A DNA stretch of 64,000 nucleotides from Archangium sp. (GTDB lineage: Bacteria; Myxococcota; Myxococcia; Myxococcales; Myxococcaceae). Below are positions 3,501 through 48,366 of this stretch, piece by piece. The stretch spans positions 6,720,259 through 6,784,258 of the forward strand of contig JASGKS010000001.1 of NCBI GenBank assembly GCA_047600485.1. Direction: 5' to 3'. A program made the translations under genes and the position numbers. The notes below the pieces were generated by a model that was given only the letters and a program-made list of their open reading frames with translations, did no database searches and was not told the DNA's origin. The number at the start of each line of letters is the position of its first letter. The stretch's first letter is position 1.

Positions 3501-3719
3501 AACCGCGATGAGCTCAGTGCGGTGGAGGAAGGGATGCAGCAGCTGCTTGCCGCCGCCCTTCGCCTTTTTCGCCGGTGCTGGCGCTTTCTTCGCCGGCGCT
3601 GGCGCCTTCTTCGACTTCGCCGGCGCGGCCTTCTTCGCGGGCTTCTTCGCAACCTTCTTCACAGGCGCAGACGGCTTCTTCGCCGCCGCCTTCTTCGCCG
3701 GCTTCTTCTTGCTCGCCAT
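585..3719 (-). CDS. Large WD40/beta-propeller repeat protein with Lys/Ala/Pro-rich histone-H1-like N-terminal tail and C-terminal TPR/HEAT-like helical repeats
   Basis: 1069-aa ORF. The likely true start is MASKKKPAKK at 3719, preceded by GGGGG about 10 nt upstream, which avoids overlap with the esterase gene. KKPAKKAA/KKAPAPAKK repeats. WD40-like strands (LATGSF, IWDVASG, WSPDGK). Helical repeats in the C-terminal half. Confidence 0.7.
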   Translation of the reverse strand: MASKKKPAKKAAAKKPSAPVKKVAKKPAKKAAPAKSKKAPAPAKKAPAPAKKAKGGGKQLLHPFLHRTELIAVGLSPDGKHLATGSFVGEDYDAGGDLLIWDVASGRVVNHFSIDGGVGWPDYAGCIQWSPDGKTLALAANTNAIVFLDPFVLGGRIDDELYLTDGWSRPPSFTWAADSKRVFVSCWRSSYDPKTRKPIPPIEGTDIPGCFATLDGDVKWMEPGVPDGAWRGANDADGEERRIEPPGRLRWAKDKLLAENSHSQLFAIDLRTRKLAWLESSYGPVAFSPNGAFIARINDGLQLWNADGARLDWANFEANGVQSLTWSPDSKRLAVIEGEDEDEPQRIALFEVNASAKSVSLLGRIDVPPHARGSWPGDFDPFAWGPKSDAVAFIDTEERVQVWSVSAAPRLISTFEVSEPRGLLWAPCERLIAWSGRTLTFIDVADKPKFTLRALFDTPTDDGPLNNERLKGYASGQFPLGKPGARVWGALLGDVLIVPDGHDAEAFELLGWADGRTSAPLDSAPLKRFASFADAIRAEPKSLPPEVRDVHGGGAKAAPSWGVSVEPRELFDLWALIELEAAEAKDAWRGNWYALLLGRLYHRAGMDDAALKAMEKASQLYEAVRVRLELALSCAVRGELDRARRYFATVDDALYTRAYEQTPSLAPQGQALRAALRQLLEGKDASAELDAAEKAIEPENNPGEKRLRVALARLALGEFDNALAHAPKLRSGQKVVLLRETTPRGLADFKKLAKACASNDFDVMYMTVDGFLGLGAIDDAFECLSWFNGLSTTEVRARILEEGMRRNFETAPEYVTRRHEKATTVDERLQCVRLMAQLDATLARSWLDRESGSSRARCLAAASLGDAAPALEALADGELDSAIDALEADGRLWPQLGEKALARALEEKDPAQLAGLVIAAMRGAAPDAATRARAAAIENLDLERHWEIGKVAARLVTGGDDDGAFAVLQRMPKTKRSYAIPEVTVALGERLAEKPEPRAWAAAYGMLSALPVDSLGTGGRAFETSRVLRRVFKWSRAEWDGLID
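3548..3716 (-). repeat. In-frame DNA tandem repeats (about 24-nt units cttcttcgccggcgctggcgcc) encoding the AKKPAKKA tail
   Basis: Directly visible near-identical tandem units at 3548-3716. A likely length-variable coding repeat. Confidence 0.6.
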
Positions 3720-3754
3720 TTCCGCGTGACCCCCGAATCGAGGAAGAGGTGCAG

Positions 3755-4885
3755 CTACTCGTAGACGAGGCGCAACGGGCCGGGGAACAGCCACGCGAGA
3801 CCTTCACGCAGCCGGTCGCGCCAGTTCTCCCAGTTGTGACCGTCGCGAGACTCGACGTACCGAATCTCCATCTCGGTGTTCTGGAGCATCGGCACCAGCG
3901 AGCGGTTCTCGTAGATGTTGCGCTCGTGCATGCCGCAGCTGATGAACACGCGCTCCGCGACCATGCTCGGGTTCTCGCGGAACTTGTTCATGAACTTGGT
4001 GATGGGCTGAACGAGGTCGCCGCGCTCCGACTTGTTGCCGAGGTCGGTGAAGGTGAACGTGCCCGACTGCAGCAGCAGCCGGCTGTAGAAACCCGGGTAG
4101 CGCACCGCGGTCGAGAGTGAGGCCACCGCTCCGAGCGACGCGCCCATCAGACAACGGCCGCGCGGTTGTCCGAGCAGCGGCAGTCGCGACTCGAGGTCGG
4201 GCACGGCCTCTTCAGTGACGAAGCGCGCGTGACGCTCGTCGTTCATGTACTCGCCCATGCGATTACGGCTGCCGCTGAACGCGACGATGAGGTCGGGGAT
4301 TTCGAGACGGTGAATCAGGTTGTCGAGCACCGTGCCGAGGTTCGCGAAGCGCAGGTAGTCGGGGCCGTCGTGCACGAAGACCAGCGGGTAGCGACGCGTC
4401 TTGCGGAAGCGCGCGGGCCGGTACACGAGAAAATCGCGGCGCTCGCCGAACGCCTTGCTGTTGACGACCCACTGCTCGAGCTTGCCCTCGGCCGCTTCAG
4501 GGTCGCGCTGCGTCCACGGAGGCACGACGTAGCCATCGCCGTGCACCACCGAGTTCGCGCCGTAGGGATCGATCGCGTGGTGGCGGTTGAGCGGGTCCTG
4601 AATCCACTGGCCGTGACCGCCGCGAACGACCTCGAGTTTGTATTCGAAGCGCGATTTGCGAGGGAGATCGAGCGTGAGGTACCAGAGGTTGGTCTCGGGC
4701 AACCGCACCAGCGCGTTCGAGTTGTCGAGGCCCCACACCCACGTCTTCAGGTACACGCCCTCGGCGTCGCCGCGGAACACGAAGGTGACCTTGGTGCCCT
4801 CGACGATGGGGAACGTGTGGTCGCGCATGAACGCGTCGACCGCGGCGGTGTCGGGCGTGTTCACCTTGAGCAGGTCGATCGCCAA
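3755..4885 (-). CDS. Putative esterase (enterochelin/ferulic esterase-like alpha/beta hydrolase with N-terminal E-set domain)
   Basis: 376 aa. The N-terminal beta-sandwich is followed by PLVFVHDG, GxSxG-like MGASLGA and a C-terminal His region, typical of the putative esterase family. Confidence 0.65.
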   Translation of the reverse strand: MAIDLLKVNTPDTAAVDAFMRDHTFPIVEGTKVTFVFRGDAEGVYLKTWVWGLDNSNALVRLPETNLWYLTLDLPRKSRFEYKLEVVRGGHGQWIQDPLNRHHAIDPYGANSVVHGDGYVVPPWTQRDPEAAEGKLEQWVVNSKAFGERRDFLVYRPARFRKTRRYPLVFVHDGPDYLRFANLGTVLDNLIHRLEIPDLIVAFSGSRNRMGEYMNDERHARFVTEEAVPDLESRLPLLGQPRGRCLMGASLGAVASLSTAVRYPGFYSRLLLQSGTFTFTDLGNKSERGDLVQPITKFMNKFRENPSMVAERVFISCGMHERNIYENRSLVPMLQNTEMEIRYVESRDGHNWENWRDRLREGLAWLFPGPLRLVYE

Positions 4886-20454: not shown

Positions 20455-21435
<981 letters not shown>

Positions 21436-35177: not shown

Positions 35178-35657
35178 TCACTTCGCCGGCGGGAGCAAGA
35201 CCGCGTCGACGATGTGCACGATTCCGTTGCCGGCGCGGGCCGAGCCGAGAATCTGCGCGTCGTTCACGTACGTCTTTCCGTCCTTCACGTGGAAGACGAC
35301 GTTGCCGCCGTTCGCAACGCCCAGCTTCATGCCTTCCTTCATGGAGCGCACTTCGTAGACCGACACCGCCACGTGGAACTTGAGGATGTTCTGGAGCGCT
35401 TCTTTGCTCTCCGGCTTCATCAAGCCATCGAGCGTTCCTTTGGGGAGCTTGTCGAACGCTGCGTTGGTGGGCGCGAACACCGTGAACGGTCCGGCGTTCT
35501 GCAGAGAACGCACGTACTCGGCGGCCTTGAGCGCTGTGACGAGCGTGGTGTGGTCAGGCGAGCTCACGGCGATGTCGACCACCGTCGCGGGAGGTGCGTC
35601 GGCCGCGAGTGTGAACGACGAGAGGAGACAGATGATGGCGAGGGAAGTGCTTCGCAT
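35178..35657 (-). CDS. Fasciclin (FAS1) domain protein, secreted
   Basis: Signal peptide plus FAS1 motifs (TVFAPTNAAF, GIVHIVDAVLLP). Sits 34 nt downstream of nosY. Confidence 0.8.
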   Translation of the reverse strand: MRSTSLAIICLLSSFTLAADAPPATVVDIAVSSPDHTTLVTALKAAEYVRSLQNAGPFTVFAPTNAAFDKLPKGTLDGLMKPESKEALQNILKFHVAVSVYEVRSMKEGMKLGVANGGNVVFHVKDGKTYVNDAQILGSARAGNGIVHIVDAVLLPPAK

Positions 35658-35690
35658 GTGAACCTCCGGGTGCGACGTGAAAGCAGGGCC

Positions 35691-36524
35691 TCAAGCAATG
35701 AGGTCCATGCGCTGCGCTCGACGGAGCGCAGCAAGCGTGGCGATGGTGCCCAGCGCGGCGGGCCAGGCGATGGCGACCGTCAGCGCGAGTGCCGGGCCCA
35801 GCGTGTTGGCGAGCCAGAAGCCGACGGGGCCGAGCACTGACAGCTCGGGGTCGGTGCTCGCCAGAATTCCCACGCGCGCGGCTTCGACGGGGTTGATGGC
35901 CGAGAGCGCGAAGACGAGCTGCGGCGGCAACGAGGTTCGCAGCAGCACGGTGATGAGCAGCACATCGTGGAGCGCCGCGGTGACGACGAAGAGCAGCAGC
36001 GACCACACCATCGCGCGCTCGGCGTTGCGCGCCCAGGTTGAGATGAACAGACCCAGGCCGATGAACGCGAAGACCAGCGCCACGCTGACCCCGACGCTCT
36101 TGAAGGCGATGACGGCCAACCCGGGTTCGGGCTCGACGAAGAACGCGGCGACGAAGCTGCCGATGAGCAGCACGAGCAGCGGGCCGACGAGCACGATGAG
36201 CCGCGAGACGAGCAGCGAGAAGAACCACGTCGAGCGCTTCACCGGCTGGGTGAGCATCAGCTCGCAGAAGCCGCTGGTGCGCGCGCGCACGACGGCAGCG
36301 TGGGTGGCCACCAGCACCACCAACGGAAACACGAGGATGATGGCGTTGGCGAGATTGAGCAGCACTCGCGAGAGACCGGTGAAGCCGAGCACGGTCGACT
36401 CGCGCAGGCCGAACCACACGAAGGCCCCGGCGAGCCCGAGGTAGATCAACCCGGTCAGCGCCACCCAGCGCGAGCGGAGCGCGTCGGCAAGCTCGAGCCG
36501 AAGGAACGCAGCGAAGGGACTCAT
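35691..36524 (-). CDS. nosY: ABC-2 type permease NosY
   Basis: Six-TM ABC-2 permease. Its start ATG overlaps the nosL stop (ATGA). Confidence 0.75.
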   Translation of the reverse strand: MSPFAAFLRLELADALRSRWVALTGLIYLGLAGAFVWFGLRESTVLGFTGLSRVLLNLANAIILVFPLVVLVATHAAVVRARTSGFCELMLTQPVKRSTWFFSLLVSRLIVLVGPLLVLLIGSFVAAFFVEPEPGLAVIAFKSVGVSVALVFAFIGLGLFISTWARNAERAMVWSLLLFVVTAALHDVLLITVLLRTSLPPQLVFALSAINPVEAARVGILASTDPELSVLGPVGFWLANTLGPALALTVAIAWPAALGTIATLAALRRAQRMDLIA

Positions 36525-36949
36525 GGCAACACCTGCTCGGTGCCCGGCCGCGCCTTCTTCGCGACAGCCGCGCGCACCTCGTCGAAGCCCACGCCCTCGT
36601 TGGCCGGGAGGAAGCCGAAGTCCATCGGGGTCTTGCCCGCCGCGAAGCGCGTCTGCGCGGGGTCCACCCACCCTTCTCCACGCGGATCACGGACCCAGCG
36701 CGCGACGACCTGAGGGTGCTCGCGGTCTTCCCACGAGATGAGACAACCGACGTCGTCGAAGAACTTTCGCTGGCCGTTCTCGAGCAACAGCTGCGCGCTC
36801 GGCGCCTTCTCGCTCACCAGCATCGAGCAGTGCGCGCACGCCTGCTTTCCCCACCAGGGTTCCTGCGGAGCGGCCGGCCCGCGCGCGCAAGCGGTGGCGA
36901 GCAACACCACCGCGACGAGCCGATTCCAGGTCATCGCGGAGCACTTCAT
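36521..36949 (-). CDS. nosL: Copper chaperone lipoprotein NosL
   Basis: Lipoprotein signal (LLATAC). CAHCSM and DDVGC motifs typical of the NosL family. Confidence 0.7.
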   Translation of the reverse strand: MKCSAMTWNRLVAVVLLATACARGPAAPQEPWWGKQACAHCSMLVSEKAPSAQLLLENGQRKFFDDVGCLISWEDREHPQVVARWVRDPRGEGWVDPAQTRFAAGKTPMDFGFLPANEGVGFDEVRAAVAKKARPGTEQVLP

Positions 36950-37650
36950 CGGACACCTCCCGGGCGCAGCGTGATGACGTTGTCGACGCTGGCCTGCGCG
37001 CCCCACTGCATGTGTTCGAGCGCGGCGTCCTGCACCACGCGGCCCTCGTCGAGCTGCACCACGCGCTGCACGAGGTGACGCACCTCATCGACGCGGTGGC
37101 TGCACAGCACGAGAATCGACGTCGCGGGCCGCGCGAGCACGTCGTCGAAGAAGGCGTTCCGCGCCGCGGCGTCGAGGTTGGCGGTCGGCTCGTCGCACAC
37201 CAGCACCGGCGCTTCGGCGGTCAGCGCCAGCGCGGCGAGCAGCTTCTGCTTCATGCCGCCCGAGAGGTCGCGCACGCGCGTCTTCGCCACGGCGTCGAGG
37301 TCGAGCCCGAGCCGCCGCGCACGCAACGCACACGCCCCCGGCTCGCGCGAGCGCAGGGCGCAGAACGCAGTGACCAATTCCCGCACCGGCGCGTCGAGCG
37401 GCGGAGCGACCTGGGGCATGCACGCCAGACTGCGCAGGGCGACCTCGGGTTCGCGCGCGACGTCACTCCCGAACAAGGTGACGCGCCCCTCGACGCGCAG
37501 CAACCCACACAGCGCGCGCAGCAGCGTGGTCTTGCCCGAGCCGTTGGTGCCGACGAGAGCCACGCGCTCACCGGGCTTGATGTCGAGCGACACCGCGTCG
37601 AGCGCACGCACGCGGCCAAACGTCTTGCTCACGTTCTGAAAGGAGATCAT
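36946..37650 (-). CDS. nosF: ABC transporter ATP-binding protein NosF
   Basis: Walker A GTNGSGKTT, LSGGMKQK signature, Walker B LVCDEP. Confidence 0.85.
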   Translation of the reverse strand: MISFQNVSKTFGRVRALDAVSLDIKPGERVALVGTNGSGKTTLLRALCGLLRVEGRVTLFGSDVAREPEVALRSLACMPQVAPPLDAPVRELVTAFCALRSREPGACALRARRLGLDLDAVAKTRVRDLSGGMKQKLLAALALTAEAPVLVCDEPTANLDAAARNAFFDDVLARPATSILVLCSHRVDEVRHLVQRVVQLDEGRVVQDAALEHMQWGAQASVDNVITLRPGGVR

Positions 37651-38888
37651 CGCGGCACCTCACGGTGGGGACGCATCGCGGGCGTCGGGTCTTGCAGCAG
37701 CAACGTCGCGCCGAAGTACGGCAACGCCGAGGCCACCGCGTCGTAGAGCCCGAAGGCCGCGGTGCCGTGGAACCAGTGGAGCTCGGGGTGGGCGTCGCTG
37801 ATGCCCGAAGACGCGCGCTTCACCTGGAACGCGACGTCACCCACGCCGTCGGAGTCGAGGTCGTAGCCGGCGTACGCCGCCCAGTGGTTGCCCGCGAAGT
37901 CGATGCCCAGCGCGTCGCCGTTCCCGTCGACCTCGACCAGCGCGTCGTTGTCGAGGAAGTCGTTGTCGGTGAACCGCGCGCCTCGCTCGCTGGAATGGGT
38001 GCGCAGCGCGCAGGCGTTGAGCGCCAGCATGTTCTCTTCGAACACCACCGGCTGCTTCGGGTCGCGCGGCGTGTAGTCGAGGTACAGGCCGGTGGTGTTG
38101 GCGACGATGGCGTTGCGGCGCAGCGTCACTGCGTCGCTTTCCTTGAAGCCGATGCCCATGCCCGCTGGCCCGCGCGCGCCAGACAGCTCGTTGTCCTCGG
38201 CGAGCACGCGGGCCGAGTACATGAAGAAGATGCCGACGGTGTTGCCGCGGAGCACGCTGCGCCGCACCGTCGAGTCGTGCGCGTACATGAAGTGCGTGCC
38301 GTAGCGGCCGCCGGTGATGCGGTTGTCTTCCAGCGTGACGTGGCGCGAGTACCAGACGACGAGGTCGCGCACGCCGCGCACGTCGAGCCGCCGCACCGTC
38401 GAGCCGTGCGCTTCCCACAGCTTCACGCCGTCGCCGCGCTGGTTCTCTTCGATCTCCGCGCGCCCCTCGATGCGGGTGTCCTCGAGCAGACAGGCGTGGC
38501 ACTGCTCGAACGCAATTCCATACAGCGTGTCACGCACCGCGACGCGACGGACGGTGGCGCGCTCTCCGGTGAGCTTGAGCGCGCCGTCTTCGAACGACAC
38601 GCGCGCGCCGGAGCCCTGGAAGGTGACGTCTTCCACCACCACGTCGTCGCCGTGAATGCGCAGGATGGTGGCCTTGCCGCTGCCCTGCAGCACGGCGTTC
38701 TCGCAGCCGTGAAGCGCGAGGCCACGCTTCACCTCGAAGTCACCCTGCACCGTGCCGCCGATCCACACGTCGCGGTCGCTGCCCTCGAGCGCGGCCTTCA
38801 ACGACGCCGCGTCACGGCTGGCGTTGGGAGGGCACGGCGGCGAGAGCGGACCGGCGGCGGTCAGCAGCGTGAGGAGCAGGGCGCTCAC
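37647..38888 (-). CDS. nosD: Periplasmic parallel beta-helix protein NosD
   Basis: Signal peptide plus repeated right-handed beta-helix units (NxxxGIxxxxS-type). Overlaps nosF by 4 nt. Confidence 0.8.
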   Translation of the reverse strand: MSALLLTLLTAAGPLSPPCPPNASRDAASLKAALEGSDRDVWIGGTVQGDFEVKRGLALHGCENAVLQGSGKATILRIHGDDVVVEDVTFQGSGARVSFEDGALKLTGERATVRRVAVRDTLYGIAFEQCHACLLEDTRIEGRAEIEENQRGDGVKLWEAHGSTVRRLDVRGVRDLVVWYSRHVTLEDNRITGGRYGTHFMYAHDSTVRRSVLRGNTVGIFFMYSARVLAEDNELSGARGPAGMGIGFKESDAVTLRRNAIVANTTGLYLDYTPRDPKQPVVFEENMLALNACALRTHSSERGARFTDNDFLDNDALVEVDGNGDALGIDFAGNHWAAYAGYDLDSDGVGDVAFQVKRASSGISDAHPELHWFHGTAAFGLYDAVASALPYFGATLLLQDPTPAMRPHREVPR

Positions 38889-38889
38889 G

Positions 38890-39348
38890 TCATTTCTCCA
38901 CGCTCTTGAGGTAGCTCAAGATGAATGGGAGCTCGGTCTGCGGGTTCACGCCCTGGTTCGGCATCGGCGTGAGGTGCTCGACGAAGGGCTTCTTGGCGGT
39001 CTCGTCGTCTTTGATCATCACGTCGGGGCGCAGAATCATCTTCTTGATCCACGTTTCGTCGCGGCGCGCGGTGACGCCCTTGAGATCAGGACCGACGAGC
39101 TTGCCGCCGCCGATCTTGTGACACGCCGAGCAACCCTTGGCGGCGAACGTCTCCTCGCCCTTCTTGATGTCGGCGGGCGCGGTGCTGATGGTGAAGGTCG
39201 GCACTTCGATCTCCACCTTCGCGGGCGCCGCGGGCTCGGCCGGTGCGGGAGCCGCGACCGCCTGCGGCTCGGGTGATTTGGGCGCTTCGGTCGGCTTTTC
39301 GTTGCACGCGGACAACACGAGTCCCGCGGCGAGGATGATTCGCTTCAT
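38890..39348 (-). CDS. Monoheme c-type cytochrome lipoprotein (clade II nos-associated)
   Basis: Lipobox LSAC. Single CSACH heme motif. The Met ligand is in MILRPDVM. Confidence 0.8.
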   Translation of the reverse strand: MKRIILAAGLVLSACNEKPTEAPKSPEPQAVAAPAPAEPAAPAKVEIEVPTFTISTAPADIKKGEETFAAKGCSACHKIGGGKLVGPDLKGVTARRDETWIKKMILRPDVMIKDDETAKKPFVEHLTPMPNQGVNPQTELPFILSYLKSVEK

Positions 39349-39388
39349 GACTGCTCTCCTGGTGGTGAACGGGTGAGGTGGGAACCGG

Positions 39389-41350
39389 CTACTTCGCCTT
39401 CGGCTTCACCATGAAGTAGCCCATCATCTCGAGGTGCAGCGCCGAGCAGAACTCGGTGCAGTACATCGGGAAGACGCCCGGCTTGTCGGCGACGAACTTC
39501 ACGTTCTCGTGCTTGCCGGGCTCGAGCGACAAGTTGATGCCGTACATGTCGATGGTGAAGCCGTGCACCTGGTCCTCGGCCTGCTCGACCGAGGTGATGT
39601 GCAGGTAGACGATGTCGCCCTCTTCGACCTCGATGCGGTCGGGCGTGAAGTGGCTGCGAATGGCAGTCATGTACACGTTGACCACGTTGCCGTTGCGCTC
39701 GATGCGCTCCTTGCCCGGCGTGACGGCGAACTCGTCCTTCTGATCAGTGTAGGGGTTGGTGCCCATCGGGTAGACCTTCATGGGCGCCAACTTGTCCGCC
39801 TTGATCATCTGCGCGTAGTGCGGCTCGCCGATGCCGATGGGCATGTCGGCCAGCAGCTTCATCTTTTGTCCGTCGATGCCGACCAGCTGGAAGTTCTGCG
39901 GGTAGAGCGGACCGATGTTCGCGAAGCGGTCGATGCTCATCTTGTTCATCGCCACTACGTACTTGCCGTCGGGGCTGACCGTGTCGCCCTCCGCCGCGAG
40001 GATGTGGCCGATGTTGTAGTGAACCGGCAACTTCTCGACGACCTTCAGGGTCTTCAGGTCCCACTTCGCGACCACGCTCTCGATGAACACCGAGGTGTAG
40101 GCGAAGCCCTTGTCGTCGTAGACGGTGTGCAGCGGCCCAAGGCCGATCTCCACCTGCCCGCGAATGCTGTCCTTGAACGGGAGGATGTTGAGGCCGTAGC
40201 TGTCCTTGCCCTCGAACGTTCCCGCCTCGATGAGGTTCTTGATCTTCTCGAAGCGATACACGGTGGCGTGCGTGTCGAGCTTGCCGCCGACCACGATGTC
40301 TTCACCGTCGGGAGTGACGTCGACGCCGTGCGGTGACTTCGGCTCTGCGATGAGCGTGAGCACCTTCTCCGGCCCGGTGACCTCGAGCGGCAGCACCTTC
40401 ACGCCCTTGATGGTCTTCGCCTTGCCTTCCTTCACCAGCGCTTCGGCCTTCTTCCAGTTGATGACGTGGAGGAAGTCGGTGTCGTTCTGCGACGCGCCAG
40501 ACTCGACGGGCGGGTTGCCTTCGAGAATTCCGCCCGTAGCCATCTCGGTGTTGAAGCTGTTGATGAAGATGTAGCCGTCAGACGCGCGCTTGCCGGAGTC
40601 GGCGAGGTCCTGCGTGTACGGCGGCAGCTCGACGCCGAACGACTCGCTCTCGACGATGCGGCCCTTCGTGCGGTCGAACTTCCAGAACATCGCCAGGCCG
40701 CGGTACTTCTCCTTGTACTGGCTGACCGGCACGTACTCGCGGCCCAGCGGCGACGGGTACTGGCTGGTCTCGATGACGTAGTCGGTGTTGGGCGTGACGA
40801 AGGCGCCGCCGTGGTCGGACGCGACCAGCGGGTTGGGCACGATCTGCTTCGTCGCGAAGTCCGACAGGTCGACCACCGCCACGCGCGCGTTCGCCTTGTC
40901 GTTCACGAAGAGGAACTTGCCGTCGTAGTCGCCGTTCATCTCGCTCAGGTTCGGGTGGTGCACGTCGGCCCACGCGAGCTTGCCGCCCTTGTATTGCTGG
41001 CCACCCTCGAGCACCTGATCAGACAGACCGCCGTAGCCGTAGCCCTGCCACGGCTCGGGCGTGAACACGCCGAGCACCTTCAACAACCGCATCGAAGGCA
41101 CGCCGATGGTGAGCACCTGACCAGACTGACCACCCGACGCGAAGATGACGTAGTCGTCCTTCTGCCCGCTGGGCTTGTACGTGAGGAGCGCGGCCTCGAC
41201 GTCGGCTTCGCTCAACTTGCGCTGAGCCATGATGTCCTTGAGGCCCGCGCTGGCTTGAGCGACGGGAGCGGAAGACGGCGTGCCCGGCGTCGAGCCCGAA
41301 GAGCAGGCGCTCACGGACAGAACGACGAGGGCGAGGAGAAGACGTTTCAT
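39389..41350 (-). CDS. nosZ: Nitrous-oxide reductase NosZ, clade II (Sec/lipoprotein type)
   Basis: 653 aa. N-terminal MKRLLLALVVLSVSAC with no twin-Arg. Beta-propeller CuZ His region. C-terminal CuA motif CTEFCSALHLEMMGYF. Strong GGAGG RBS. Confidence 0.95.
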   Translation of the reverse strand: MKRLLLALVVLSVSACSSGSTPGTPSSAPVAQASAGLKDIMAQRKLSEADVEAALLTYKPSGQKDDYVIFASGGQSGQVLTIGVPSMRLLKVLGVFTPEPWQGYGYGGLSDQVLEGGQQYKGGKLAWADVHHPNLSEMNGDYDGKFLFVNDKANARVAVVDLSDFATKQIVPNPLVASDHGGAFVTPNTDYVIETSQYPSPLGREYVPVSQYKEKYRGLAMFWKFDRTKGRIVESESFGVELPPYTQDLADSGKRASDGYIFINSFNTEMATGGILEGNPPVESGASQNDTDFLHVINWKKAEALVKEGKAKTIKGVKVLPLEVTGPEKVLTLIAEPKSPHGVDVTPDGEDIVVGGKLDTHATVYRFEKIKNLIEAGTFEGKDSYGLNILPFKDSIRGQVEIGLGPLHTVYDDKGFAYTSVFIESVVAKWDLKTLKVVEKLPVHYNIGHILAAEGDTVSPDGKYVVAMNKMSIDRFANIGPLYPQNFQLVGIDGQKMKLLADMPIGIGEPHYAQMIKADKLAPMKVYPMGTNPYTDQKDEFAVTPGKERIERNGNVVNVYMTAIRSHFTPDRIEVEEGDIVYLHITSVEQAEDQVHGFTIDMYGINLSLEPGKHENVKFVADKPGVFPMYCTEFCSALHLEMMGYFMVKPKAK

Positions 41351-41391
41351 GTGAACCTCCGGGAGTTGCGAGTCGTGACGGCGCGCTGAAG

Positions 41392-41407
41392 TGCGAGCGA
41401 TGTGCCA
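41392..41407 (-). promoter_or_regulatory. Candidate sigma-54 (-24/-12) promoter upstream of nosZ
   Basis: The minus strand reads TGGCAC-ATCGC-TCGCA. The GG/GC spacing is exact and there is one mismatch to the TTGCA -12 element. The -12 element lies about 40 nt upstream of the nosZ ATG. Confidence 0.45.
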
Positions 41408-41515
41408 GCGCTGATCAGGAGCGCGGAGCGAGCGCAGCGCGTCGATTCGCTGCAGCGCGTGCGCGCGAGCCCGAATTCACGCAACCAGTGCGCACCGGCA
41501 TGTTCCGCCGCCGGT

Positions 41516-42495
41516 TCACTTTGAAACCGCCTCGTATTGCTTGAGCTTGCGCCACAGCGTGGTGCGCCCGATGCCGAGCACGCGCGCGGCGTCGACCAGC
41601 TGACCTCCGCAGGCGTCGAGCACGCGCAACACGTGCCGCTTCTCCGCCTCGTAGAGCGAGAGGAGCGGGTCGTTCACCGTCAGCGCCGGCTGCAGCACCA
41701 CCTCGGGCAGATGCGCCGGCTCGATGGCCTGGCCACGCGCGAGCTGTGCGGCGCTGCGCACGGCGTTGTGAAGCTCGCGCACGTTGCCCGGCCACGAATA
41801 GGCGCGCAGCGCACCGAGCGATGCCGGCACGAAGCCGGCGTGGTTGCCCTGCTGCTCGAGGAACATCTCGGCGAGCGAGAGCACGTCGTCACCGCGCGCG
41901 CGCAGCGGCGGCACTTCGAGCGTGAACACGCTGAGCCGATAGAAGAGGTCTTCGCGAAACCGCCCGTCGCGCACGAGTCGTTGCAGGTCGTGCACGGTCG
42001 AGCACACCAGCCGTACGTCGACGTGCACGGGTGCGCCGCCGCTCGGGTGAACTTCACGGTCTTCGACGACGCGGAGCAGCGGCCCTGCACCACGAGCGGG
42101 AGGTCTGCCACCTCGTCGAGAAAGAGCGTTCCCCCGTGCGCCACTTCGAATGCGCCGTGGCGCAACACCGCGCCGAAGAGCTCGAGCGACAGCGCGTCGA
42201 CTTCGCCCGCGGCGCAGTTGAGCACCACGAACGGCCGGTCGCGCCGCGGACTGTTCACGTGGAGCGTGCGCGCGAGCACCTCTTTCCCGACGCCGGGCTC
42301 TCCACGCAGGAGCAGCGGCTCGGGAGCACCCGCGAGCGCCTCGAGGCGCGAGAGAATGGTCTGCATCGTCTCGCTCTGCGCGACGAGTCGGCGGCAGGTG
42401 CGCGGGCCGGCGTGCTGCTCGGCCGCGGCGCTGCAAATCCTGCACAGCGTGCCTCGCTCGACCGGGCTGCTGCACGTGAAGGGTCCCAGAGCCAT
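41516..42495 (-). pseudogene. Sigma-54-dependent activator with Cys-rich N-terminus, interrupted by a -1 frameshift (or sequencing error)
   Basis: The N-terminal part (GEPGVGKE...GGTLFLDEVADLPLVVQGR) and the C-terminal part (LLRVVEDRE...VDVRLVCST...GNVRELHN...HTH) are each contiguous but lie in two frames. The junction at about 42079-42083 is consistent with one missing C. Confidence 0.7.
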
Positions 42496-42561
42496 GCGCA
42501 GATGCGGTGCATGGACGGTACCGGCGCGACGCTGGCGTGCCCGATGCACCGCAGGCTGCGC

Positions 42562-43221
42562 ATGAAGATCTACCTCTCGCGCTTCTACGCCTTCCTCGCG
42601 CAGCCGCTCCGGCCGGTCTCGCGCGTCGTGCTCGCGACGCTGGCCGTGCCGCTGGCGCTGGCGTTCTTCCAGCCGCTGTGGCGCATCTCGATGGAAGCGC
42701 CGCAGTACCCCGCGGGGCTGTACCTCGACATCTACGCGCACACCGTCGAGGGCGGGAACGGCGGCCAGCACCTTCAGGAAATCAACACGCTCAATCACTA
42801 CATCGGCATGCGCACGCTCGATCGCGCGGCGATGACCGACCTCGACTGGATTCCGTTTGCGCTCGGCGCGCTGCTCATCTTCGCGCTGCGCGTGGCCGCC
42901 ATCGGCAACGTGAGCTCGCTGGTCGATCTCGCGGTCGCCACCTTCTATGTGAGCGCCTTCGCGTTCGGCCGCTTCGTCTACACGCTGTGGGTGTTCGGTC
43001 ATCACCTGAAGCCCGATGCGCCCGTGAAGGTGCCGGGGTTCATGCCCGCGGTGCTGGGCAGCAAGCAGATCGCCAACTTCACGACGCACAGCGGGCCACG
43101 CGAGGGCTCGTTCCTCCTCGGCGTCTTCGTGTTGGGCGTGCTCGGCGTACTCCTCTTTCACCTCGTCGCAGGGCGGCGTGAGGCCGTGCGGCAGGCGGCG
43201 CTCGCTGGCGCGGCGGCTTGA
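42562..43221 (+). CDS. Hypothetical integral membrane protein (4 TM)
   Basis: Divergent from the sigma-54 activator. Hydrophobic helices. First gene of the plus-strand operon. Confidence 0.5.
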   Translation: MKIYLSRFYAFLAQPLRPVSRVVLATLAVPLALAFFQPLWRISMEAPQYPAGLYLDIYAHTVEGGNGGQHLQEINTLNHYIGMRTLDRAAMTDLDWIPFALGALLIFALRVAAIGNVSSLVDLAVATFYVSAFAFGRFVYTLWVFGHHLKPDAPVKVPGFMPAVLGSKQIANFTTHSGPREGSFLLGVFVLGVLGVLLFHLVAGRREAVRQAALAGAAA

Positions 43222-43224
43222 CCC

Positions 43225-44499
43225 ATGACGACGCTCACGCAACGCCACCTGCGTCTGGGCGTGGTCGCGACGCCCGCACGTCAGGCCGCGCCATGGACAC
43301 CGTTCGTCGTCGCGTCGCTCGTCTTCACCGTGCTCGTCGGAGCGCTCACCGGCGCGCTCGACTTGTGGACGTTGCGCGTCCTCCAGACTGCGGTGCCCGA
43401 GGCGCATCGGCAGGCGCACGCGCTCGGTCAGCTGTTCGGCTTCCTGTGGCTGCTGACGCTCGGCGTCTCGCTGCACCTCGCTCCGAAGTTCTTCGCGCAC
43501 CCCGAGCCACGCCCTGAGCTGGTGCGCGCGCTCGCGTGGTTCGGCATCGGCGGCGTGGTGCTGCTCGTCATCGGCCGCTTCGGCCGGCTGGTTCCGCACT
43601 CCGCTTCACTCGGCGCCGTCGGTGCGTTCGCGCTGCTGGTGACGATGACCGCGTGGCTCCACTGGCTCTCGCAGGCGTGGAGACAGGGCGTCGCGCCGAA
43701 GGAGCCGCTCCACGCCTTCATCACCGCGGGCGCCGCGTGGTGGTGGCTCGCTTCGCTCGGCGTCATGGCGTGGACGTGGTGGCCCGCGAAGGTGCCGCTC
43801 GAGGCCGTGTGGCGCATCGCGCTCTTCGGCGGCGTCGCGTCGTGGCTGTGGGGCGTCTTCTTCCGCGCAGGAATCTGCACCTTGCGCGTGCAGCGACCGA
43901 CGCTCCGCTCGCAGTGGGTGCTCTTCGGCATGTGGCAGCTCGCGAGCGCCTCGAGCGTGCTCGCCGTGGTCTTCGACGCGCGCGCGCTGCAATTCACCGC
44001 CGGCCTCAGCATGGCCGCGGCGTGCGCGCTGTTGTGGCGCAACGTGCGGCCCTTCTCGGGTGACGGCGTCGCGGCGCTCGGGGCGCTCCAGCCGCGCGCG
44101 GTGCAGGCCGGCCTGGTCTTCGTCGCGCTCTTCGGCGCACTGCAGGCGTGGGTGGCGCTGCGCGCGCTCGAGGTGTGGAGCCCTGCGTTGCTCGACGATG
44201 CCGCTCGGCACGCGTTCACGCTCGGCGCGGCGACTCTGCTCGCGTTCGGCTTCGCCGGGCGCATGGTGCCCGGCTTCCTCGGAACCTCTCTGCGTTGGCC
44301 GCGCGTCTACGACGTCGGCGTGGTGCTCGTGGCGTGCGGCGCCGCCGGTCGATTCGCCGAGCTGTCGGCCCTGCCCGTGATGCAGCGCCTCGCGGGGGGC
44401 TCCGGTGCGCTCGCGGCCCTCGGCGTCACGGCCCTCACCGCCTCGCTGCTGCGCTCGATTCGCGCAGGACGCGCTCTGCAGCAGGAGCGCGCGTCATGA
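43225..44499 (+). CDS. Polytopic membrane protein, NnrS-like (NO-response heme-copper membrane protein family)
   Basis: 424 aa, about 12 TM helices, Trp/His-rich. The NnrS assignment rests on size, topology and denitrification context. Confidence 0.45.
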   Translation: MTTLTQRHLRLGVVATPARQAAPWTPFVVASLVFTVLVGALTGALDLWTLRVLQTAVPEAHRQAHALGQLFGFLWLLTLGVSLHLAPKFFAHPEPRPELVRALAWFGIGGVVLLVIGRFGRLVPHSASLGAVGAFALLVTMTAWLHWLSQAWRQGVAPKEPLHAFITAGAAWWWLASLGVMAWTWWPAKVPLEAVWRIALFGGVASWLWGVFFRAGICTLRVQRPTLRSQWVLFGMWQLASASSVLAVVFDARALQFTAGLSMAAACALLWRNVRPFSGDGVAALGALQPRAVQAGLVFVALFGALQAWVALRALEVWSPALLDDAARHAFTLGAATLLAFGFAGRMVPGFLGTSLRWPRVYDVGVVLVACGAAGRFAELSALPVMQRLAGGSGALAALGVTALTASLLRSIRAGRALQQERAS

Positions 44500-45392
44500 G
44501 CGTCAGAAAAGTAAGTCTTTGCTTACTTCTATTGGCGGCTCCTGCGGCACAAGGCGCGGCCTGCTGCCTGTCGGTCTCGGTGGTCGGGGCCGGCCGGCTC
44601 ACCGCGTGGGAAGCGGGAGCAGCGGGCGTCTCGTCTTCTTTCGCGCACAGCACCGGGCGCTGGAACGGCGCCAGCACCTGGCGAGCCTTCGACGGCGGCC
44701 TGCTGGAAGACGAGCTGCGCTTCGAAGCGTGGGGCATCGTGCGGCTCGCCGACGCGTGGCAGCTCTCGGCGCGCGTGCCGTGGGTCGTCGGTTTCCGCTC
44801 GGCGGGTGACGTGAACTCGGTCGGCACGGGCCCGGGTGACGTCAGCGCCGCGATTCGCTGGGAAGCGGTGCCGCTCGGAGCGTGGCTGCACGTACCGGGC
44901 ATCGCGTTCACCGCCGGCGTCACGGGTCCGACGGGCCGACGGCCGGAGCAGGCCACCGACACGCTCGGAGCGAGCATCACCGGGCGCGGCGCGTTCGGCG
45001 GAAGTCTTGGCGTGACGGTCGAGGAGACGTGGAACCCGTGGTTCGTGCGCGGAGACGGTGGAGCGACGGTGTTCGCTCCGTTCACGCGGCAGGACCTCGG
45101 CGCGTCGCAGTGGCTCGGCCCCAACCTGCAGGTCGCGCTCTCGGGTGGCCGCGAGTTGTTCGAGAAGCTGGTGCTCGCGCTCTCGGTGCGCGTCGACCAC
45201 GACTTCCCGTACGCGCTCGACGGTCGCGTCATCGCGGGTTCCGCGGCGACCACGCTCTCGGCTTCGGCCTCAGCCGCATGGAAGGTGACCAACCACTGGA
45301 CCGTCACGGCCGCCGTCACCGGCGACGCGCTGGGCGTCAACCGCGAGGCGCGTCTCGCCGCCACCCTCGGAGTTCGTCATGGCTTCTTCTGA
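44496..45392 (+). CDS. Outer-membrane beta-barrel-like protein
   Basis: Signal peptide, alternating amphipathic strands, C-terminal ...HGFF. ATGA overlap with the upstream gene. Confidence 0.45.
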   Translation: MSVRKVSLCLLLLAAPAAQGAACCLSVSVVGAGRLTAWEAGAAGVSSSFAHSTGRWNGASTWRAFDGGLLEDELRFEAWGIVRLADAWQLSARVPWVVGFRSAGDVNSVGTGPGDVSAAIRWEAVPLGAWLHVPGIAFTAGVTGPTGRRPEQATDTLGASITGRGAFGGSLGVTVEETWNPWFVRGDGGATVFAPFTRQDLGASQWLGPNLQVALSGGRELFEKLVLALSVRVDHDFPYALDGRVIAGSAATTLSASASAAWKVTNHWTVTAAVTGDALGVNREARLAATLGVRHGFF

Positions 45393-46011
45393 GCTGCGCC
45401 GCGCCATCGCTGTCGCCGTGCTGGTGTTCGCGGGCTGCGCGACGTCGAGCTCGTCGCGCGGGTTGCAGCACGCGACGCTGACCTCGACCACGCGCGCGCG
45501 CACCACCGCGCAAGAACTCGTCGCCGCGTCCGACGGCACGGTGTTCGTCTTCTGGTCGGGCGGCTGCCCGTGCGTGCGCCGCTACCAGGCGCGCATCGAA
45601 GCGCTCGCGGCCGAGTGGAGCGTTCGCGGCATCGCGTTCGTGCAGGTCTCGAGCAACGCGGGAGAGAGCATCGACTCGCTCGCCGACGTGGCGCGAAACC
45701 GCGGGCTGAAGCTGCCGCTGTGGCGCGACGACGAAGGCGCGCTGGCCGAAGCGCTCGACGCGCGCACCACACCGACCGTGGTGTTCGTCGCGCGTGATGG
45801 CCGCGTGCTCTACCGCGGGTGGATCGACAACGAGCGCGCGCCCGGAGAAGACGGTCGCGAGGCGTGGCTCGAAGACGCGCTCGTAGGCTTCACCGCGGGC
45901 AGGCCGTTCGCCAGCCGCACGCCGACCTGGGGCTGCACCATCACCCGCTCACTCGCGCGCTCGTCGGCGCCGCTGTGTCACGTCGTCACCGAAGAAGGAG
46001 TCACGCCATGA
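45379..46011 (+). CDS. Thioredoxin-fold lipoprotein (TlpA/Sco-like thiol-disulfide oxidoreductase)
   Basis: Lipobox FAGC. FVFWSGGCPCV redox motif. Confidence 0.6.
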   Translation: MASSELRRAIAVAVLVFAGCATSSSSRGLQHATLTSTTRARTTAQELVAASDGTVFVFWSGGCPCVRRYQARIEALAAEWSVRGIAFVQVSSNAGESIDSLADVARNRGLKLPLWRDDEGALAEALDARTTPTVVFVARDGRVLYRGWIDNERAPGEDGREAWLEDALVGFTAGRPFASRTPTWGCTITRSLARSSAPLCHVVTEEGVTP

Positions 46012-46793
46012 AGTTCTTTGGGCTCTGCGTCGTTGTGTCGCTGTTCGCATGTGGGCCGCAGCCATCGGCCACTCCCGACTCCACGCTTCGTGCGAGCGCG
46101 ACGAGCGGTGAGCTGACGGTCGAACTGCGCTCCGACGAGCCGCTGCACGTCGGGCAGAACGTGGTGCGCTACCGGGTGTTGCACGACGGCGTCGACGCAC
46201 CGCACGCGCTGATCACGCAGACGCCGCGAATGCAGATGATCATGGGCTCGGGCGAGACCCCGCACGGGTGCCCGCTGAAGAACCCCGACCACGAGCCGAA
46301 CGCCGACGGCTTCTTCGAGGGGCTGCTGGTCTTCACCATGCCGAGCTCTGTCGACACGCGGTGGTCGCTCACGCTCGAGGTCGAGCTGCACCACGGCGCG
46401 GCGCCACTGCTCGTCGACTTCGGTGAGCTCGAGATTGCTGACTCCACGTCGCGGCAGTTCGCGATGCGTGACGGGCAGCGCGTGATGCTCACCGCGGCGC
46501 TCGAGTCGAAGCCGAAGCTGGGAGCGAACACCTTCATCGTCACCGCGCATCGCGCCGAAGACGCGGCCCTGCTCTCGTGGGTGCCGGTGACCGACCTGAC
46601 GTTCAGCGTGACGCCCGAGATGCCGGTGATGGGCCATGGGTCGTCGAACAACGAGGCTCCGGTGCCCGGCGAAGACGGCCTGTACCGGGGCACGGTGAAC
46701 TTCATGATGGCCGGTGACTGGGTGGTGCACGTGGGCGCGCGCGCTGGTGACGTCGCGCTGACGACCTTCGACGTGCCGTTCACCGTCGAGTGA
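46008..46793 (+). CDS. Lipoprotein with Met/His-rich putative Cu(I)-binding motif (CopC/YtkA/PCuAC-like)
   Basis: MKFFGLCVVVSLFAC lipobox. TPRMQMIMGSGETPHG and MPVMGHG Met-His clusters. Two beta-sandwich-like halves. Confidence 0.5.
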   Translation: MKFFGLCVVVSLFACGPQPSATPDSTLRASATSGELTVELRSDEPLHVGQNVVRYRVLHDGVDAPHALITQTPRMQMIMGSGETPHGCPLKNPDHEPNADGFFEGLLVFTMPSSVDTRWSLTLEVELHHGAAPLLVDFGELEIADSTSRQFAMRDGQRVMLTAALESKPKLGANTFIVTAHRAEDAALLSWVPVTDLTFSVTPEMPVMGHGSSNNEAPVPGEDGLYRGTVNFMMAGDWVVHVGARAGDVALTTFDVPFTVE

Positions 46794-46841
46794 GCATTGC
46801 TTCGTTTTGACGAAACATCGGTCGGCGCGTAGCTCACGCGC

Positions 46842-47279
46842 ATGTTGAAGACTCAAGTGCGCGCCGTACAGCGCGCGTATCCCCGCATCTACGTCGCGTG
46901 TCACACCGACCACCGCGGCCGTGGAACCACGCGCGACTCGGTCTCGCCGCGCGACGAGGCCATCCTCTCGCACCTCGACTTGAAGGAACCGCTCAAGCCC
47001 TCGACCCTCGCGAAGCACCTGGCGATTGGAATGCCGACGTTGTCGGAAGCCATCGATCGACTCGAGGTCGCCGGGCTCGTGGAACGCCGTCGCGCGGTGA
47101 AGGACCGACGTGAGGTCGAGCTGCGACTCACCGCTCGCGGAGAAGCGCTGTCGGCCGCACAGTCGGTGCTCGACGCGACACGGCTCGCTCGCGTGCTTCG
47201 CCGCCTGAGCGCCACCGAGCGAAAGTTGGCGGTGCGCGGCATGGAAGTGCTCGCGCACGCGTGTCGGGGCACGCCTTGA
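46842..47279 (+). CDS. MarR-family transcriptional regulator
   Basis: Winged-helix region LKPSTLAKHLAIGMPTLSEAIDRLEVAGLVERR. Confidence 0.8.
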   Translation: MLKTQVRAVQRAYPRIYVACHTDHRGRGTTRDSVSPRDEAILSHLDLKEPLKPSTLAKHLAIGMPTLSEAIDRLEVAGLVERRRAVKDRREVELRLTARGEALSAAQSVLDATRLARVLRRLSATERKLAVRGMEVLAHACRGTP

Positions 47280-47782
47280 AGCTCGCGCTCATCATCATCG
47301 CGGTGCTCGTCGCGCTGGTCCTCGTGATGTTCATCGTCGGAGCCATGCTGCCGAAGGACCACGTCGCGTCGCGTTCCGTCACGCTGAGCGTCCCGCCTGA
47401 GGTGGTGTTCGCGCTGATCAGCGACGTGAAGAACGCGCCGTCGTGGCGCTCGGGCCTGAGCGCCGTCGAAGGTGATGAGCAGCGCTTCATCGAAGTGACA
47501 CGACACGGGCGAATTCCGTTTCGCGTGCTCGAGAACACCGCGCCGAGCAAGCGGGTGGCGCAGATTGATGATCCGTCGCTGCCGTTCGGCGGAACGTGGA
47601 CGTGGGAGCTCGTTCCCGAGGGAACGTCAGGCACGCGCGTCACCGTCACCGAGCGAGGCACCGTGGGCCCGCCTCTCTTCCGCTTTCTCTCGCGCTTCGT
47701 GTTCGGCCACGACGGCACGCTGAAGCAGGTGCTGAACGACCTGCAGCGTCACTTCACGACGACGTCCCAGAGCGCTTCGTAG
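47261..47782 (+). CDS. SRPBCC (polyketide cyclase/dehydrase-like) protein with N-terminal TM anchor
   Basis: N-terminal TM helix followed by a START/Bet v1-like fold. Confidence 0.55.
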   Translation: MSGHALKLALIIIAVLVALVLVMFIVGAMLPKDHVASRSVTLSVPPEVVFALISDVKNAPSWRSGLSAVEGDEQRFIEVTRHGRIPFRVLENTAPSKRVAQIDDPSLPFGGTWTWELVPEGTSGTRVTVTERGTVGPPLFRFLSRFVFGHDGTLKQVLNDLQRHFTTTSQSAS

Positions 47783-48366
47783 AAGCTCGTCGCTCCGCGA
47801 AAGTCGGGCTGCGTTCCGAGGAAGAACGGAGTCTCTTCCGCGCTGATGGTCGCCACGCCGAAGAACGGGCGAAAGAACCACGCGGCCTGCGCTCCGACGA
47901 GCAGCGACATCGCGAGCCAGCACGCGACCAACGCTCGGCCACGCGAAGCGGAAAGTGAAGTCGCCGCCACGACGCTGCGCGACTGCCGAATCAACGCCAG
48001 CGTGCCGCAGATGCCGATGAGCACCACGTTCGCCGCCATGAACAGCGGGTACTCGTGCAACCCGCACTCGTCAGGCCGCTCGAGCGCACGCGAGAGAAAC
48101 AGGCTCACCGTGGCGAACGACGCCAGCAACACCGAGGCGTCGCGGAACAGCGAGAAGCTCAGCGTCTGCACCTGCGCGAATCGCAGCCGCGCTCCGAACG
48201 CTGCCGCGACGACGAAGTACGCCACCGCGCATACCGTCGCCGTCACCAGCAGGAACAGCGGGAACTTGATGACGTTGTGCAGACCGAACCGAAGGCTGTG
48301 CACACAGCCGATGGAGAAGCCGTACAGCGCCGCTCCGCCGATGAGCGTCAGCACCAACCGCTTCAC
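47749..48366 (-). CDS. Hypothetical membrane protein (paralog of upstream gene), GTG start
   Basis: Five to six TM helices. The GTG start overlaps the stop of the upstream paralog (GTGA). Sequence is similar to 48363-48980. Confidence 0.45.
   Translation of the reverse strand: MKRLVLTLIGGAALYGFSIGCVHSLRFGLHNVIKFPLFLLVTATVCAVAYFVVAAAFGARLRFAQVQTLSFSLFRDASVLLASFATVSLFLSRALERPDECGLHEYPLFMAANVVLIGICGTLALIRQSRSVVAATSLSASRGRALVACWLAMSLLVGAQAAWFFRPFFGVATISAEETPFFLGTQPDFRGATSFYEALWDVVVK

Follow-up and report, generated by a model that had tools for sequence, protein, structure and literature searches.

A sigma-54-type nosB operon in the clade II nos regulon of Archangium sp. with a putative copper-trafficking envelope cassette

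The closest described counterparts of the locus treated here are systems that assemble the CuA centre of cytochrome oxidases, copper systems of the Pco/Cop type, and the accessory proteins of clade II nitrous oxide (N2O) reduction. The lipoprotein CtaK (YtkA) of Bacillus subtilis is tethered to the membrane and has conserved His and Met residues (PMC9145763). Together with the thioredoxin-like Sco it acts in the assembly of CuA of cytochrome caa3, and the loss of ctaK is rescued by added copper (PMC9145763, PMC13344008). In proteobacteria the corresponding partners are PCuAC and Sco or TlpA. Pco/Cop systems combine the multicopper oxidase PcoA, the barrel PcoB and the chaperone PcoC/CopC. NosB is a clade II-specific membrane protein which is essential for N2O respiration in Wolinella. 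Here we describe five genes (genes 1 to 5) next to a clade II nosZ in a stretch of 64,000 nucleotides (nt), hereafter the window, from a metagenome-assembled genome of Archangium sp. Like the CuA assembly pairs, this locus encodes a predicted tethered Met/His lipoprotein and a thioredoxin-fold lipoprotein adjacent to a CuA enzyme, and like Pco/Cop it encodes a predicted outer-membrane barrel together with a periplasmic Met-rich protein of copper type. It is unlike CtaK/Sco in that it has two YtkA domains, a partner with CP...GC cysteines, a dedicated outer-membrane channel, and NosZ in the place of cytochrome oxidase.

The region is best read as a sigma-54-driven nosB operon within a clade II nos regulon, of which it is the second transcription unit. 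Two blocks make it up: genes 1 and 2 encode a pair of inner-membrane proteins, NosB and a divergent member of the NnrS family, and genes 3 to 5 are a three-gene envelope cassette. That genes 3 to 5 are a copper-trafficking cassette which the nosB operon of this Archangium lineage has recruited is a proposal to which we give somewhat better than an even chance. It is supported by the Met and His residues that are invariant in both domains of gene 5, by the role of CtaK, by copper-related neighbours of the cassette elsewhere, and by its links to nos. The purpose of the cassette would then likely be to supply or prepare copper for the Sec-exported apo-NosZ.

All five genes lie closely packed on the plus strand between 42562 and 46793 (Table 1). 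The original prediction had described five co-oriented genes joined by ATGA or short overlaps and diverging from a nos regulator, and both its coordinates and its junctions hold: the open reading frames (ORFs) are present where they were first read, genes 1 and 2 are separated by a 3-nt gap, genes 2/3 and 4/5 share ATGA overlaps, and genes 3/4 overlap by 14 nt. GC content at third codon positions is 0.84-0.91 in the claimed frames, compared with 0.43-0.59 at second positions, which supports their coding status. The same five genes occur in the same order in the closest relative (locus L003), and sub-blocks of the operon were found again at many further loci. The arrangement is therefore not due to chance. 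A MarR-family regulator and a polyketide cyclase-like SRPBCC protein follow gene 5 and are probably not part of the operon, since they are not conserved in L003.

Judged by published motifs, gene 1 encodes NosB, the accessory protein that is characteristic of nos clusters of clade II. Its product carries LNHYIGM at residue 77 and FGHH at residue 145, and the motifs described for NosB homologues are LNHYIGM at about position 76 and YGHN at about position 144 (PMC9697520). Gene 1 shares these two conserved motifs and their positions with clade II NosB as known from Wolinella succinogenes, Gemmatimonas and the NosB-NosL fusions of Flavobacterium. The first motif is present in 120 of 120 homologues of gene 1 among the matches listed. 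Several of the 2076 homologues bear the name 'NosL' at the Joint Genome Institute, which is explained by the fact that NosB is fused to NosL in some bacteria (PMC9697520). No Pfam or NCBIfam model matched gene 1. The protein, 100% identical to locus QM817_30795, is small and polytopic with four predicted hydrophobic segments, and a Sec-type nosZ lies 1.2 kb away in divergent orientation. It had been called a membrane protein, which it is predicted to be, and its identity as NosB had been missed. NosB genes elsewhere are usually found immediately beside nosZ in the same cluster, either downstream (PMC11096178) or upstream (PMC9697520). In the window and its relatives among the Myxococcota, by contrast, nosB leads an operon of its own with its own sigma-54 box, and it diverges from nosZ in every related myxobacterial nosZ locus examined. 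A different nosB operon is found in other Archangiaceae (L001, 10675-13297; L005, 10672-13174), with nosB followed by an outer-membrane protein, a lipoprotein and a canonical NnrS. The outer-membrane protein of these two loci has an N-terminal CxxCxC and is weakly similar to gene 3 (hhalign E = 4e-4). Locus L012 has both the CxxCxC type of outer-membrane protein and the cassette of genes 3 to 5.

Upstream of nosB we identified a sigma-54-type -24/-12 box, TGGCGTGCCCGATGCA, which is the sole match to TGGC-N7-WTGCA within the window. An equivalent box lies 12-14 nt 5' of nosB in all eight loci compared (window, L001, L003-L006, L008 and L012). The alignment of these upstream regions is otherwise 51% identical, with GG and TGCA in the small set of columns 5' of the start codon that do not vary. 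A second box, TGGCACATCGCTCGCA, is situated upstream of nosZ and is the sole match to TGGCAC-N5-TNGCA in the window (0.16 expected); comparable boxes precede nosZ in six of seven loci examined. The features expected of a sigma-54 promoter, that is a GG-N10-GC (-24/-12) element, conserved spacing and an activator nearby, are thus present at the level of sequence. The geometry of the box predicts a near-leaderless nosB transcript with a leader of 2-4 nt and no Shine-Dalgarno sequence. The same spacing of 12-14 nt is seen 5' of gene 2-like genes away from nos (L009, L010). A scan of 41300-47900 for sigma-70 promoters and terminators revealed nothing above background.

A divergent sigma-54 AAA+ activator gene lies between nosZ and nosB. 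Its homologues in L003, L004 and L008 are intact and comprise Sigma54_activat, AAA_lid_14 and HTH_8 domains. In the window the gene is broken by a 1-nt deletion near 42076-42079 (between ...VVQGR and LLRVVEDREV...), and the profile of GC content at third positions shows a frame switch inside it. The frameshift may reflect either a real pseudogene or an indel error of a long-read assembly. The N-terminus of the activator (42380-42496, minus strand) is short and contains four Cys residues in the arrangement GPFxC-x9/10-CxxC-x11/12-C, with no receiver or GAF domain. This arrangement is conserved in the activator of L004 (8891-9922, minus strand) and may be a motif for metal or redox sensing. A second sigma-54 activator paralogue occurs in the window at about 20476-21390 (plus strand) and is 38-41% identical to the nos-linked regulators.

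The last gene of the operon encodes, by profile match and motifs, a tandem YtkA/CtaK-type lipoprotein. Gene 5 matches PF13115 (YtkA) with 54.5 bits (cut-off 25.9) over residues 163-242, each half of the protein aligns to the single-domain YtkA protein of L004, and the lipobox reads LFAC. The first domain keeps M-x-M ... H-x-x-P ... F-x-M and the second keeps P-(E/Q)-M-P-x-M-G-H-G ... M-x-G-x-W without variation in 20 homologues of gene 5 drawn from the loci examined in this study. YtkA was the only Pfam match at E <= 1, and neither PCuAC nor CopC was matched. The copper-chaperone character that had been suggested for this Met/His lipoprotein is therefore retained in the form of YtkA/CtaK, and its likeness to PCuAC and CopC is not. 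The sequence motifs first pointed out (MQMIMG...H and MPVMGHG in gene 5, CPC in gene 4) are all present. We also considered that the YtkA protein replaces an absent NosL, and rejected this because a small NosL is encoded between nosF and nosY. A scan of the genome collection with gene 5 found one locus, L007. There, in Bacteriovoracaceae, an ECF sigma/anti-sigma pair stands beside a CPC...GC redoxin and two single-domain YtkA lipoproteins (1791-4430), a variant of the cassette which has no barrel gene on the sequence covered.

The protein encoded by gene 4 is assigned, by profile and structure comparisons, to the thioredoxin-fold lipoproteins of the 2ywi/3u5r/2cvb family with CP...GC cysteines. 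It matches AhpC-TSA (35.4 bits, cut-off 26) and Redoxin (32.2 bits, cut-off 26.6) in Pfam and has a VFAGC lipobox, a CPC motif and a C-terminal GC. C63, P64, G185 and C186 are invariant in 46 representatives of gene 4, and C65 is restricted to a close subfamily. The AlphaFold2 model has a predicted local distance difference test score of 90.5. The family profile matched 2ywi (E = 1.3e-28), 3u5r (4.1e-23) and 2cvb (3.2e-20), and the same three were the top Foldseek matches, with ResA-type reductases lower in the lists; they are structural-genomics proteins without known function that share the Cys-Pro and Gly-Cys with gene 4. Two more familiar assignments were tried and rejected. As a Sco protein, gene 4 has no PF02630 match and no CxxxC...H, its motif being CPC with invariant C63 and C186. 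As a TlpA/ResA/CcmG-type protein it has the fold and lacks CXXC, and the second Cys of C-P-C is not conserved. The description as a CPC thioredoxin-fold lipoprotein accordingly stands, and a relation to Sco or to CXXC-type TlpA/ResA falls away.

These data also bear on the idea that gene 4 is a ResA/CcmG/TlpA-type reductase which matures the nos-linked c-type cytochrome, with unrelated passengers as neighbours. A cytochrome c gene does follow nosZ, ResA structures are among the Foldseek matches, and gene 4 shows weak NCBIfam matches to StoA and ResA (E about 1e-4). The missing CXXC, the invariant C63 and C186 and the better structure and profile matches to 2ywi/3u5r/2cvb speak against it, as does the fact that gene 4 is nearly always found between genes 3 and 5, whether or not a cytochrome gene is nearby. 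We regard this explanation as very improbable.

Gene 3 had been described as an outer-membrane barrel, and this is borne out by a predicted 12-stranded barrel of the FapF/COG4313 type with a signal peptide and a C-terminal aromatic beta-signal. Just after its signal peptide stands an invariant Ala-Ala-Cys-Cys; the N-terminal part contains a strongly conserved segment, GxGRLxxWE, and the C-terminus carries GVRHGFF. No Pfam family was matched. Identity to COG4313 channels and to the amyloid secretion channel FapF is merely 14-18%, and gene 3 differs from both in its own signature (the N-terminal AACC and GxGRLxxWE) and in its genomic context. Gene 3 matches FapF and COG4313 far better than PcoB. 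In two relatives, genes 2 and 3 form one ORF of about 720 amino acids (P0137, at L004 10642-12801, and P0160), which argues for a functional coupling of the two genes. In both fusions an internal signal peptide is retained, with its positive charges, its hydrophobic part and the A/AACC site, which would allow the barrel to be cleaved off and released. The possibility that gene 3 is not an outer-membrane protein since it can be fused to gene 2 was rejected for the same reason.

Gene 2 had been called NnrS-like, which fits its family better than the protein itself. With 11.9 bits (E = 0.15), gene 2 stays below the 28-bit gathering threshold of PF05940, although the alignment is near full length (profile positions 8-351 of 371). 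Among 25 aligned relatives (38-67% identical to gene 2), 14 match PF05940 at E <= 0.01, the best with 3.5e-9. The family is small, with 58 matches of which 11 have a precomputed PF05940 annotation, and H61, H65 and H329 are invariant in its alignment. Gene 2 therefore belongs to a divergent NnrS subfamily and is linked to NnrS solely via its family. It has in common with NnrS the full-length Pfam alignment, several predicted membrane segments, conserved histidines and an association with nirK or nosZ. It differs from the canonical NnrS that follows nosB in L001 and L005 by its score below the Pfam cut-off and its small distinct subfamily; a comparison with these proteins gave no BLAST match and, against a single-sequence target, an hhalign probability of 3%. 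Relatives of gene 2 with 50-68% identity are located after nosB (L003, L004, L008), those with 46-47% identity adjoin nirK-nirV-Sco (L049, L009), and one relative (43%) has no denitrification neighbour. In L049 (6253-11329) and L009 (3036-7022), which are not nos loci, the gene 2-like NnrS is found beside a nirK-cytochrome c fusion, nirV (FGE-sulfatase family) and Sco. The gene 2-like genes of L049 are accompanied by the same kind of short sigma-54 activator, from which they diverge.

NnrS is a haem- and copper-containing protein tied to nitric oxide (NO) tolerance. The operon might hence be mainly a nitrosative-stress module in which the NnrS-like protein and NosB guard NosZ or the cell against NO and the remaining proteins are thiol-redox helpers that have no part in copper handling. 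The membership of gene 2 in the NnrS family and the role of NnrS in NO tolerance fit this view, as do the NO-producing contexts of its distant relatives in L049 and L009, with nirK-nirV-Sco adjacent and hemerythrin nearby. We nevertheless consider it improbable, since genes 3 to 5 occur as a unit without an NnrS, nir or nos gene in most loci, L012 has nosB and genes 3 to 5 without gene 2, and the invariant Met/His motifs together with copper-protein neighbours suggest metal handling.

The distribution of the cassette was followed by a metagenome scan with the gene 3 alignment, which yielded 37 loci; together with the other loci examined, 40 carry a gene 3 homologue. Of 28 loci with no less than 700 nt of downstream sequence, 26 have gene 4 after gene 3, and of 21 loci with no less than 1500 nt, 19 have gene 4 and then gene 5 after it. 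Genes 3 to 5 are a conserved and mobile three-gene cassette, and copper is a recurring theme of its neighbourhoods. Multicopper-oxidase-like proteins are encoded next to it in L018, L039 and L045, a cupredoxin straight after gene 5 in L038, MbnP, a copper-acquisition protein, in L012, and a Rieske/cytochrome b/c set in L011. When the surroundings of the non-nos cassettes were searched by tblastn for COX1, COX2, Sco, NirK, NirV, Rieske and cytochrome b, none of them turned up. Three of the 16 loci with at least 3 kb upstream are nos-linked (L003, L004, L012), and their gene 3 homologues are the most window-like among these 16. The arrangements adjacent to nosZ are the complete five-gene operon (L003), nosB with genes 3 to 5 and no gene 2 (L012), and nosB followed by the fusion of genes 2 and 3 and a YtkA gene (L004). 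With regard to the claim that the module serves NosZ, the nearest relatives do show the expected link to nos, and the cassette as such is not nos-specific. Since most homologous cassettes sit away from nos, service to NosZ would be a lineage-specific recruitment.

Several of these neighbourhoods would suit another function equally well. Genes 3 to 5 could form a copper tolerance or detoxification module like PcoB/CopB with PcoC/CopC, which sequesters periplasmic Cu(I) and passes it out; beside nos, its role would then merely be to shield NosZ or the envelope from copper. Downstream of the cassette, L039 and L045 encode multicopper-oxidase-like proteins, an HMBD (CusB-like) protein and an AcrB/CusA-type RND pump, and a further RND pump lies about 3 kb downstream in L003. 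A MacB-type ABC exporter precedes the cassette in L036, L022, L028 and L043, and a NikR-type metal regulator follows it in L036. The likeness to Pco/Cop extends to these frequent multicopper oxidase and efflux pump neighbours. On the other hand, in the window lineage the cassette shares a transcription unit with nosB, whose sigma-54 box resembles the one before nosZ, it occurs with a cupredoxin in L038 and with the copper-acquisition protein MbnP in L012, and CtaK, the sole characterised YtkA protein, delivers copper to CuA. The PcoB match of gene 3 is, in addition, far the weaker one. We therefore hold detoxification to be unlikely, while giving it more weight than the two explanations discussed above. 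Because the contexts mix cuproenzymes with efflux and resistance genes, the direction of copper flow is not settled by them.

Copper trafficking towards NosZ could proceed as follows. The NosZ of the window has the N-terminus MKRLLLALVVLSVSAC, a lipoprotein-type signal, from which both Sec export and a lipid anchor are predicted. The Sec route has been described for clade II NosZ (PMC11096178). With such a signal the enzyme is exported unfolded, and both copper centres have to be loaded in the periplasm. Copper would pass the outer membrane via the gene 3 channel and be taken up as Cu(I) by the Met/His sites of the tandem YtkA protein. The gene 4 protein might keep acceptor cysteines reduced, for example the CuA cysteines of the unfolded apo-NosZ, or might alternatively reduce or relay the metal. 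Copper would finally be passed to NosZ and perhaps also to NosL/NosDFY and the NnrS-like protein. The proposed action of genes 4 and 5 parallels that of Sco/TlpA with PCuAC or CtaK in the assembly of oxidase CuA. We infer copper binding, the direction of transport, the target and the activity of the promoters as parts of this copper-trafficking reading.

A number of points weigh against it. The promoter boxes are predicted from sequence alone, the gene of the sigma-54 activator carries a frameshift in this assembly, and copper binding by the products of genes 1 to 5 is putative. Gene 4 has neither the CXXC of TlpA/ResA nor the CxxxC...H of Sco. NosL is already present in the cluster, so that an extra chaperone is not obviously required. 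Thirteen of the 16 cassette loci with at least 3 kb upstream are not beside nos, and neighbours of the efflux or resistance type (Cus-like RND, MacB with NikR, multicopper-oxidase-like) fit detoxification as well as supply. The metagenome loci were, moreover, found by patterns from relatives of gene 3, and the sample is possibly biased. As to the original prediction as a whole, its gene classes and the copper idea persist, while NosB had been overlooked and the Sco/TlpA, PCuAC and CopC guesses fail.

Table 1. Positions of the nosB operon, its putative promoter boxes and surrounding features in the window
Feature	Position	Strand	Remark
Gene 1, nosB (motif-based)	42562-43221	+	219 amino acids; 4 predicted transmembrane helices
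Gene 2, divergent NnrS-family inner-membrane protein (predicted)	43225-44499	+	424 amino acids
Gene 3, predicted secreted 12-stranded outer-membrane beta-barrel channel	44496-45392	+	298 amino acids
Gene 4, predicted thioredoxin-fold (AhpC/TSA-type) lipoprotein	45379-46011	+	210 amino acids
Gene 5, predicted tandem YtkA/CtaK-type Met/His lipoprotein	46008-46793	+	261 amino acids
Sigma-54-type -24/-12 box TGGCGTGCCCGATGCA	42533-42548	+	13 nt 5' of nosB ATG
Sigma-54-type box TGGCACATCGCTCGCA upstream of nosZ	41392-41407	-	pattern match
Sigma-54 AAA+ activator, divergent, between nosZ and nosB	41516-42496	-	match split into two frames
nos cluster, clade II type	35178-41350	-	Pfam matches
nosZ	39389-41350	-	Sec/lipoprotein signal
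Cytochrome c gene	38890-39348	-	follows nosZ
nosD	37647-38888	-	Pfam matches
nosF	36946-37659	-	Pfam matches
nosL, small, between nosF and nosY	36536-36940	-	NosL 23.1 bits (cut-off 24)
nosY	35691-about 36530	-	Pfam matches
Fasciclin-domain gene	35178-35690	-	Pfam matches
MarR-family regulator and SRPBCC (polyketide cyclase-like) protein	46842-47782	+	3' of gene 5

The nos cluster on the opposite strand is of clade II type (Table 1). Its small NosL is 74% identical to the NosL of L003. The fasciclin-domain gene of the window recurs in the nos loci of three of the myxobacterial relatives (L003, 2403-2882; L004, 13215-13697; L008, 12722-13213). In the window and in L003 it is located 3' of nosY. 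L004 and L008 have it at the nosB operon's far end, L008 on the opposite strand. Hemerythrin-domain genes occur in the nos or nirK loci of relatives (L008, 7559-8056; L012, 8723-9295; L049, 5408-5923; L009, 8619-9128) and are absent from the window. The hemerythrin gene adjoins the sigma-54 activator in L008 and lies a few genes away in L049 and L009.

NosB, NnrS, YtkA/CtaK and thioredoxin-fold partners are already known kinds of proteins. Our literature searches found no description of the conserved three-gene cassette with its own outer-membrane channel, of its joining to nosB and NnrS, or of the conserved near-leaderless sigma-54 promoter. A more far-reaching proposal, which we consider doubtful and put forward only tentatively, makes two claims jointly: that genes 3 to 5 are an undescribed, widespread copper import-and-insertion pathway of diderm bacteria which metallates diverse periplasmic cuproenzymes, and that, together with NosB and the NnrS-like protein, it supplies the CuA and CuZ copper of the Sec-exported clade II NosZ. 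The parts of this pathway, at the same tentative level, would be a dedicated outer-membrane Cu(I) channel with the N-terminal Cys-Cys as its gate, a thiol protein of the CP...GC kind and a CtaK-like chaperone in tandem form. If true, the import-and-insertion proposal would give NosB its first functional context.

The greenhouse gas N2O is removed biologically above all by organisms with clade II NosZ. The locus addresses the questions of where the twelve copper atoms per dimer of a Sec-exported NosZ come from and what the role of NosB is. A cassette that occurs in about 40 loci accompanies several different copper proteins, and in this Archangium lineage the locus yields concrete candidates for the copper supply of NosZ, namely NosB, an NnrS-type protein and three envelope proteins, within one operon that would be under sigma-54 control.

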